Origin: an uncultured Anaerolineae bacterium
GTDB taxonomy: Bacteria; Chloroflexota; Anaerolineae; J036; Brachytrichaceae
Direction of reading: 5' to 3'
NCBI GenBank assembly: GCA_938034415.1
Contig: CALHLE010000030.1
Coordinates: 3,708-67,707, forward strand
Length of the DNA: 64,000 nt
Shown piece by piece: positions 55,208-55,529 of this stretch. The position numbers and the translations under genes were made by a program. The first letter of the stretch is position 1. The number at the start of each line of letters is the position of its first letter. The notes beneath the pieces were generated by a model that was given only the letters and a program-made list of their open reading frames with translations, was not told the DNA's origin and ran no database searches.

Positions 55208-55312
55208 CGTTGCTCCTTAGATTTGCAAGCGATTAGGGATTGTCAACACGTGCACAAAGCGTCCCTGCGCCAACGTCCCCGCTCGCATGCGCAGGAGCTA
55301 CGATGTGTTCGA
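55199..55312 (-). promoter_or_regulatory. SD/AUG-sequestering stem of the transporter mRNA
   Basis: 55199-55217 and 55293-55312 form an inverted repeat with 18 paired bases, one mismatch and one bulge. Confidence 0.75.
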
Positions 55313-55423
55313 GCTTGCTGCGGCAAGGCCGGAGGCAGCGATGGCGACAGAGCCGTATGAGCGGCGCGACACGCGCGCCGAAGGGCGATAGGTTCAGCGA
55401 TAGTGCGTCAGGTTCAACGGCAT
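55298..55423 (-). CDS. Putative selenocysteine-containing leader peptide MPLNLTHYR-U-TYRPSARVSRRSYGSVAIAASGLAAASSNTS
   Basis: GAGGAGG 8 nt before ATG 55423; UGA at codon 10 (55396-55394); hairpin 13 nt later; UAG at 55300-55298. Confidence 0.6.
55362..55380 (-). promoter_or_regulatory. Candidate bacterial SECIS element of the leader
   Basis: CGGCGCG-CGUGU-CGCGCCG; apical loop 20 nt after UGA, with G at loop position 2 followed by U. Confidence 0.6.
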
Positions 55424-55529
55424 CAACGCCACCTCCTCTGCTTTGATTTTCCTCGCCAAGCGCCCAGATGATAACGCATGGGCAGGCGCTTCCTTCGCGC
55501 TTTCGCCGCCCATCGGGTAAGATGAAGGC

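Follow-up and report, generated by a model that had tools for sequence, protein, structure and literature searches.

The leader element described here lies in a 64,000-nucleotide (nt) stretch of DNA from an uncultured Anaerolineae bacterium (Chloroflexota, Brachytrichaceae; contig CALHLE010000030.1, positions 3,708 to 67,707), which is called the window below. On its minus strand, ahead of an operon for a putative selenate ATP-binding cassette (ABC) transporter, there is a short open reading frame (ORF) interrupted by an in-frame UGA, behind which stands a hairpin resembling a bacterial selenocysteine (Sec) insertion sequence (SECIS) element. Comparison with related loci suggests that this is probably an undescribed class of cis-regulator, in which a leader ORF gauges the capacity for recoding UGA to Sec, i.e. 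the contest between SelB–Sec-tRNASec and release factor 2 (RF2), and controls selenium import; the regulatory platforms joined to such leaders would be modular, with a sequestor of a Shine-Dalgarno (SD) sequence in the window and three-helix switches or terminators in relatives. Irrespective of the sign of the response, the sequence comparisons make it likely that the leader ORF is a Sec-tRNA/SelB-sensing regulatory device; Sec insertion at the UGA, binding of the hairpin by SelB and the regulatory output are inferred.

Read along the minus strand, the leader starts with a hexamer resembling a −10 element, TATCAT (55468-55473), the putative promoter of leader and transporter. It is kept in the genus as TG(n)GTTATCAT / TGGTATCAT, also written TGCGTTATCAT / TGGTATCAT, and is of the extended TG type in relatives; a simple sigma-70 scan called no full promoter in the leader region of the window, and canonical promoters stand at the matching site in two genomes of other families, G241 and G054. 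A strong SD sequence, GAGGAGG (55432-55438, core GGAGGU), denoted SD1, is followed 8 nt later by an ATG (55423-55421), which with eight further codons encodes MPLNLTHYR (55397-55423). The next codon is the in-frame UGA (55394-55396), the candidate Sec codon, in the context CGC UGA A, and after a spacer of 13 nt comes a perfect 7-bp hairpin, CGGCGCG-CGUGU-CGCGCCG (55362-55380), with arms at 55380-55374 (5′) and 55368-55362 (3′) and the loop CGTGT at 55373-55369, beginning 20 nt past the UGA. On read-through the frame would stay open for another 31 codons (55298-55393), up to a UAG at 55300-55298, and the product would have 41 residues; frame and stop position are both kept in relatives. An initial annotation of this DNA, made from its letters alone, had placed hexamer, SD, ATG, UGA, hairpin and UAG at these positions, all of which proved correct when the minus strand was re-read. 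It had also judged the geometry to suit a bacterial SECIS element, and the CGUGU loop at 20 nt agrees with this, the leader having an in-frame UGA within an ORF, a loop in the range of 16-37 nt and the expected G or GU in that loop.

The genome to which the window belongs encodes tRNA-Sec (73 bits; ARAGORN anticodon TCA), selB (335 bits) and selA (519 bits), all above curated cut-offs; selA, selB and selC, on which the initial annotation had let its proposal depend, are thus all encoded, together with a Sec-containing SelD. The gene for the latter, selD (selenide, water dikinase), is divergent from the leader, at 55530-56591 on the plus strand with a GTG start at 55530, and its TGA (55581-55583), already noticed as in frame, lies in the motif SCAGUAGKL (TIGR00476, 367 bits with TGA read as U). 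A hairpin search placed its SECIS element, TGGGCGC-CGUGCU-GCGUCCA, at 55609-55628 on the same strand. SelD thus contains Sec itself, which makes the organism’s selenophosphate synthesis autocatalytic as regards selenium. Divergence of selD from the leader recurs in eight genomes of the genus, and no selD match was seen within the 1.5-kb flanks of G010 and G004 or in the stretches examined of G054, G360, G241 and G249.

Genuine selenoprotein genes of the same genome, located through hairpin, frame and codon-position G+C and then confirmed with Pfam, provide a comparison for the leader hairpin. The hairpin filter was added after a first screen on GC3 periodicity had returned adjacent genes and antisense frames. 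The loop lies 32 nt from the UGA in selD, 26 nt in a thioredoxin-fold UxxC protein (GUCCGGC-CGUGC-GCCGGAU) and 25 nt in an AhpC/TSA UxxC protein (UCUGGUGC-AGUU-GCACCAGG). Two of these three genes, selD and the thioredoxin-like one, share the CGUG-type loop with the leader, and judged by its sequence the CGUGU loop at 20 nt is of the same N-G-U-K type as the genome’s own SECIS loops. The two UxxC genes, whose products are probable selenoproteins, lie outside the window: that of the membrane-anchored thioredoxin-fold protein (…YSNYUSAC…) is on the minus strand of contig C25, at reverse-complement position ~4237, and that of the AhpC/TSA-like protein (…RHLAUHYC…) on the plus strand of contig C16, at ~26906.

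A chance arrangement in a GC-rich intergenic region, devoid of function, might be suspected, as hairpins with a CGTGY loop and a stem of at least 6 bp are about as frequent in the genome (72) as in Markov-simulated genomes (71-101), and open frames are common at 64% G+C. The full composite of SD, short ORF, in-frame TGA and hairpin at 16-27 nt, however, occurs once in the 2.8-Mb genome and in none of three simulated ones, and it recurs, with covariation, in about 12 lineages, always beside selenium genes; these comparative data refute a chance origin, to which we give next to no credence. An Rfam 15 scan of positions 54000-57000 returned noise only, with no match to the leader even at E ≤ 10.

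Altogether the element was recovered in 31 leaders from roughly 12 Chloroflexota lineages. Nine genomes of the same genus, whose binding proteins are 83-99% identical to that of the window, retain the −10 hexamer, SD, ATG, short ORF, CGY-UGA and hairpin. In G054, which belongs to another family and has a binding protein of 37% identity, layout and loop are the same and the stem is wholly different (UGAUACA/UGUAUCA). A covariance model also recovered the element in G360, G241 and G249, each from yet another family of the class. Across 12 aligned hairpins, 96.4% of cells are paired and five of the seven pairs change on both sides, giving a covariation score that none of 500 shuffles reached. The conservation and covariation in relatives show that the element is not a chance feature.

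A scan of metagenome contigs with a DNA pattern that used no gene information gave 53 matches, of which 10, on new contigs, were convincing and confirmed by the covariance model; one further match, L168, is G054’s own contig and is not counted among them. TIGR04553 or YedE is encoded downstream in all nine of the new-contig copies that have downstream sequence. Several candidates were set aside along the way: a covariance-model match in G138 lies inside an ORF; pattern matches L145, L150/179/181, L192 and L169/180 belong to ordinary genes or have stems of 4 bp; and the CGTGY hairpins of proteobacterial loci L071, L079, L080 and L119, as well as a look-alike in L073, have no in-frame start and are attributed to chance. 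Among 74 TIGR04553 loci, mostly proteobacterial, no such leader was seen.

One point that weighs against too ready an acceptance of a UGA-sensing leader is that both the covariance model and the DNA pattern demand the TGA and the CGTG loop, so that their matches are biased and only protein-anchored samples are not. For this reason, a sample was taken of 12 contigs picked solely for YedE proteins 74-79% identical to one query. The leader is present in 11 of them, each time with SD, eight codons and UGA, and among these is a Dehalococcoidales contig of 36% G+C, where it lies between selB and yedE; the twelfth contig (L195, labelled Spirochaetes) has a divergent LysR regulator in its place. The hairpin stands 17-20 nt past the UGA in these leaders, and the loops (CGUGC, CGUUG, UGUCG, UGUAA, CGGUG and CGGUCCU) have the GU dinucleotide in common.

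The same comparison bears on whether the UGA is decoded at all. It could be the mere stop of a 6-13-residue peptide, never recoded, with the hairpin serving as an operator for SelB or another factor, or as part of a ligand-sensing RNA, whose binding alters the fold of the leader. Such use of a SECIS-like hairpin has a precedent in the selAB leader, where it is bound by SelB-GTP-Sec-tRNA and translation is repressed (10.64898/2026.03.03.709296), and the hairpin of the window lies within a larger predicted domain closed by pairing of SD1 with a downstream complement. Conservation of some pre-UGA residues (LNRR[TV], YR) might indicate a peptide that stalls at a genuine stop. Yet UGA is the first stop in all 31 leaders and never UAA or UAG in the 11 of the unbiased sample, and nowhere do these codons replace it, AT-rich lineages included; it is always found 17-21 nt ahead of the loop, and where further UGAs occur they too are in frame. 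The spacing changes mostly by whole codons, the hairpin is ~150 nt from the SD of the next gene instead of 3 nt as in selAB, and there is the lack of an Rfam match already mentioned. We regard a never-recoded stop as unlikely.

The part of the leader before the UGA is itself conserved in form. SD1 has a GGAGG, GGGAGG or GGGGG core in 31 of 31 leaders, and in relatives the pre-UGA section is 6-13 codons long, always in frame with the UGA, and usually has a basic residue just before it (YR, RRT). Leaders of the YedE type (L196-L206, ~200-260 nt upstream of yedE) encode M-x-x-[LF]-N-R-R-[TV]-U, and those of the window’s genus end in …Y-R-U. Either the emerging peptide or the codons ahead of the UGA may tune release versus Sec insertion.

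Behind the UGA, several features are what would be expected if ribosomes pass it. The read-through frame is open for 23-38 codons in relatives and the position of its stop is kept. The distance from UGA to loop is mostly 17, 20 or 26 nt, i.e. it moves in steps of whole codons, and otherwise ranges over 17-21 nt; wherever a UGA lies at 26 nt, another follows it in frame at 17 or 20 nt. Tandem in-frame UGAs, reminiscent of the paired Trp codons in trpL, occur in six leaders, including G054 (L028/L133) and its metagenome copy L168, G360 (L134), L151 and L159, with the motifs U-T-G-U, U-M-Y-U and U-V-U served by a single hairpin. The UGA frame first closes within, or immediately ahead of, the strand complementary to the SD of the downstream gene (termed anti-SD2 below) in 8 of 11 lineages; the corresponding counts for the two remaining frames are 4 and 2 of 11. 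It is the stop of the UGA frame that tracks this strand, which again speaks against a UGA that only terminates.

The post-UGA peptide, on the other hand, is not conserved, and in G010 and G004 the frame through the hairpin differs, which indicates that the constraint in this section is on RNA and not on protein. Accordingly, the 41-residue product is very improbable as a functional small selenoprotein, e.g. a selenium carrier or chaperone for the transporter, in place of a regulator. Some relatives would encode U-x-x-U or U-x-U, akin to redox or metal-binding motifs, and small UXX-star selenoproteins are known (PMC13188914); against these stand the variable length, the shift of frame in G010 and G004, the lack of any Cys-containing homologue among the sequences found, and an ORF end that is always interlocked with the SD-sequestering helix of the next gene, what is kept after U being explained by hairpin and anti-SD arms. 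The initial annotation had seen no redox motif in the ORF and had taken it for a regulatory sensor. The first observation holds, and extends to a lack of conservation at the protein level; the second is well supported by the comparative evidence, because SD-ATG, in-frame UGA and a hairpin with compensatory stem changes are kept across several families, and also before the unrelated importer YedE.

The RNA downstream of the hairpin is predicted to form alternative helices, which are numbered here by their strands as in classical attenuators, although fold inference is error-prone at 64% G+C. The candidate anti-SD1, CGCUGCCUCC (55331-55340), is complementary to the SD1 region, GGAGGUGGCG (55436-55427), in helix 1:2. 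The anti-SD2, UCGAACACAUCGUAGCUCCU (55293-55312), has the UAG of the leader ORF inside it and forms the 5′ arm of a helix, 3:4, whose 3′ arm, AGGAGCAACGAUGUUUCGA (55199-55217), takes in SD2 (AAGGAG, 55218-55213), the ATG at 55207-55205 and the first codons of the binding protein. This last helix is the best supported: its duplex energy in the window is −29 to −33 kcal/mol (z ~ −6, with none of 200-300 shuffles as good), it is recovered by RNAalifold, and a compensatory change distinguishes G000 from G009 (CGUAGCUCCU/AGGAGCAACG versus CGUAACUCCU/AGGAGUAACG). In the free leader SD2 is predicted to be 99% paired (unpaired probability 0.01), and in 8 of 12 leaders the SD2-sequestering duplex is better than all shuffles. 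The position of the anti-SD1, 40-80 nt past the UGA, is kept, and helix 1:2, plausible in the window, exceeds shuffles only in some lineages (G054, G241 and G249). Helix 2:3, between a segment of the read-through ORF and the anti-SD2 region (for example CCCGGGAAAAUAACG / CGUUAUUUUCCCGGG in L199), beats 200 of 200 shuffles in 16 leaders, i.e. 13 of the YedE type and the ABC-type G054, G360 and L163. A local hairpin in the window, GCAGCAAGCU:AGCUCCUGC, with the potential to mask the core of the anti-SD2, formed when truncated transcripts were folded; as it is weak and shows no clear conservation, it was not used.

A simple scan gave no terminator-like site at 55150-55620 of the window and called one in G249 alone; terminator/antiterminator pairings sought by eye in L177 and G241 gave nothing convincing. 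In the G249 locus (L138, contig C811), the leader is separated from the first gene by this intrinsic terminator, AGCCAGTCTGCC…GGGCTGGCT TTTTT.

From these elements the following course of events may be pictured, in which the leader would be a peptide attenuator with a Sec UGA as its ‘hungry codon’. A promoter ~35 nt upstream would yield an mRNA with the very strong SD1, the nine-codon ORF, the UGA and, 13 nt on, the SECIS-type hairpin. With SelB-GTP-Sec-tRNASec present, the UGA would be read as Sec and the ribosome would continue for 31 codons to the UAG, which sits in the 5′ strand of the ~19-bp helix predicted to mask SD2 and the start codon of the selenium transporter operon; with it absent, RF2 would terminate at the UGA. 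How far the ribosome travels would select among the exclusive helices, SD1:anti-SD1, read-through segment:anti-SD2 region and anti-SD2:SD2, and this choice would set the exposure of the transporter’s ribosome-binding site. Under the classical sign, selenium scarcity would leave the UGA undecoded and result in more transporter, and efficient read-through would allow the sequestering helix to close.

Uptake genes are normally derepressed by scarcity. The strong helix 2:3 of the 13 YedE-type and three ABC-type leaders also favours this sign. Constrained folds of YedE-type leaders point in the same direction: SD2 is released once SD1 to UGA+12 is blocked, and stays paired under cover of the entire ORF, so that SD2 would be freed by a ribosome halted at the UGA, and derepression would follow when Sec decoding fails. 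This agrees with physiology, because the yedE mRNA of M. maripaludis rises by 5.3 log2 on selenium starvation (PMC11097638). For the window, homology and physiology together incline us slightly towards this classical sign; that sensor and classical polarity both hold has a little less than an even chance.

What weighs against it is largely the window itself, whose local anatomy, as modelled, favours the opposite polarity. There, blocking SD1 to UGA+12 leaves SD2 paired (0.01), and helix 2:3 in window and genus is no better than shuffles (z +0.5 to −2), RNAalifold giving a weak version of it in the window. Helix 1:2, in turn, does no better than shuffles in GC-rich leaders. Moreover, should Sec decoding have the low efficiency known from E. 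coli, read-through could repress strongly only if every such event locked the leader in its OFF fold. Covering the window’s ORF to its stop raises the unpaired probability of SD2 to 0.3-0.7; in the models SD2 opens solely when a ribosome stands at the embedded UAG, and the leader would then be induced by selenium. In this opposite version, read-through to the UAG would melt the SD2/AUG helix and turn the transporter ON with selenium, and termination at the UGA would be OFF, with SD1 and SD2 both sequestered; the result would be a feed-forward, selenium-inducible importer matching the adjacent autocatalytic, Sec-containing SelD.

Several observations fit such an inducible importer. The UAG is embedded in the window’s anti-SD2 arm and is retained there at the cost of an A-A mismatch; SD2 goes from 0.01 to 0.3-0.7 unpaired only with a ribosome over the distal stop; the genus has no significant 2:3 alternative; the very strong SD1 would give enough flux despite low Sec-decoding efficiency; and in G006 and G249 the anti-SD2 core lies within the read-through ORF. 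Nevertheless, the YedE-type leaders L199 and L204 keep SD2 paired under full-ORF cover and it is helix 2:3 that frees it, and strong 2:3 helices are present in G054 and G360, whose transporters are of the window’s family. Tandem UGAs would lower the output of an inducible system quadratically, and uptake that is induced only at nutrient sufficiency would be physiologically unusual, with a risk of lock-out through the Sec-containing SelD. Induction by selenium is accordingly regarded as a possible, if rather unlikely, alternative to derepression on failed Sec decoding.

The genes that follow the leader connect it to selenium. In the window it precedes a PhnD-family substrate-binding protein (54290-55207, minus strand; PF12974), which matches TIGR04553, ‘putative selenate ABC transporter substrate-binding protein’, at 370 bits against a cut-off of 250, as the initial annotation had supposed. 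By domain matches, the same operon (51785-54423, minus strand) includes a PhnC-like ATPase (within 53491-54423) and a fused double PhnE-like permease (51785-53659); the permease has 624 residues in two PhnE-like halves, with two BPD_transp_1 stretches and two matches to TIGR01097. Grouping by downstream gene covers those leaders whose contig includes it, and here TIGR04553 binding proteins follow the leader in the window’s genus, G054, G360, L163, L170 and L185. In others it is followed by YedE (TIGR04112, ‘putative selenium transporter’, 478-501 bits), with a YedF/TusA-like protein, an SclA-like cysteine desulfurase and a PF11823 Se/S carrier behind it; yedE was not found in the window’s own genome by tblastn. 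The sole exception to these two selenium-uptake sets is G249, with a TusA-like/OsmC-like cluster.

Among the loci themselves, L195-L206 have a conserved Chloroflexota operon of yedE, a tusA/yedF-like gene, a class-V aminotransferase (SclA/cysteine-desulfurase-like) and PF11823 Se_S_carrier, which in L197 comes directly after selB. In L138 (G249, contig C811; 4172-5845), the leader is followed by a TusA-like small protein, a 119-residue unknown protein and a fusion of TusA with an OsmC-like ‘(seleno)protein’. On the far side of the window’s transporter operon, the plus strand at 48654-51751 holds unrelated neighbours, namely a tetrapyrrole-methylase/MazG fusion, a metallophosphoesterase and an NrtR-type Nudix regulator with a winged-helix domain.

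Little is known of the ways in which bacteria sense selenium, and a dedicated importer of high affinity for it has yet to be proven (PMC13188914; PMC11097638). A leader of the kind proposed would, if confirmed, be the first natural attenuator built on stop-codon recoding and a new sensing principle, in which recoding and release compete at a stop codon, so that the 21st amino acid would join those served by classical attenuation. An independent, regulon-style argument would follow that the TIGR04553 ABC system and the operon of YedE, YedF-like, SclA-like and Se_S_carrier proteins serve selenium acquisition, and the leader would be a compact natural part for gene control that responds to selenium or Sec. 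The initial annotation had known of no Sec-dependent leader peptide of this type, and a full-text search of the literature, including a 2026 review of prokaryotic selenoproteomes, likewise found no Sec-dependent leader peptide, attenuator or riboswitch.

Considering known systems, the closest in layout are the trpL, hisL and pheL attenuators, which also have a short, well-translated 5′ ORF in the operon mRNA with codons, sometimes in tandem, for the amino acid that the operon supplies. As in trpL-type leaders, ribosome position would pick among helices 1:2, 2:3 and 3:4, a topology that is clear in the YedE-type relatives. Here, however, the codon sensed would be a stop, recoded with the help of SelB and a SECIS hairpin in cis; a ribosome that fails to decode it would be released by RF2 and not stall at a sense codon; and the output in the window would be a helix sequestering SD and AUG in place of an intrinsic terminator, although some relatives, such as G249, have a terminator. 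The ermC, cat/cmlA and secM-secA leaders likewise lock a downstream SD with a strand that lies within the leader ORF or at its end, and let ribosome position control initiation; they rely on drug- or force-dependent stalling by the nascent peptide, whereas the leader described here would rely on UGA recoding by Sec-tRNASec.

Among selenium systems, the 5′ untranslated region of E. coli selAB shares a SECIS-type hairpin that reports the level of SelB-GTP-Sec-tRNASec from the leader of selenium-metabolism genes. That hairpin is 3 nt from the SD, needs no UGA or ORF and acts by occlusion; the one in the window lies 20 nt behind an in-frame UGA and about 145-150 nt upstream of SD2, and precedes importers instead of selAB. 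Bacterial SECIS elements of the fdhF type (bSECISearch model) share the in-frame UGA, a loop 16-37 nt further on and G/U in the first loop positions. They differ in that the leader hairpin is part of a non-conserved mini-ORF with no Cys homologues and has a short, fixed spacer of 10-14 nt to the stem, similar to the minimal SECIS of E. coli, compared with 18-26 nt in the selenoprotein genes of the same genome. Translation-coupled selenium control of transcription is known for fdhF(Sec) of Treponema primitia (PMC3892789), in which, as proposed here, decoding versus termination at a Sec UGA sets downstream expression; there the UGA is in the coding sequence of the enzyme itself and the effect is one of polarity, whereas the window would use a dedicated mini-ORF and RNA switches for other genes.

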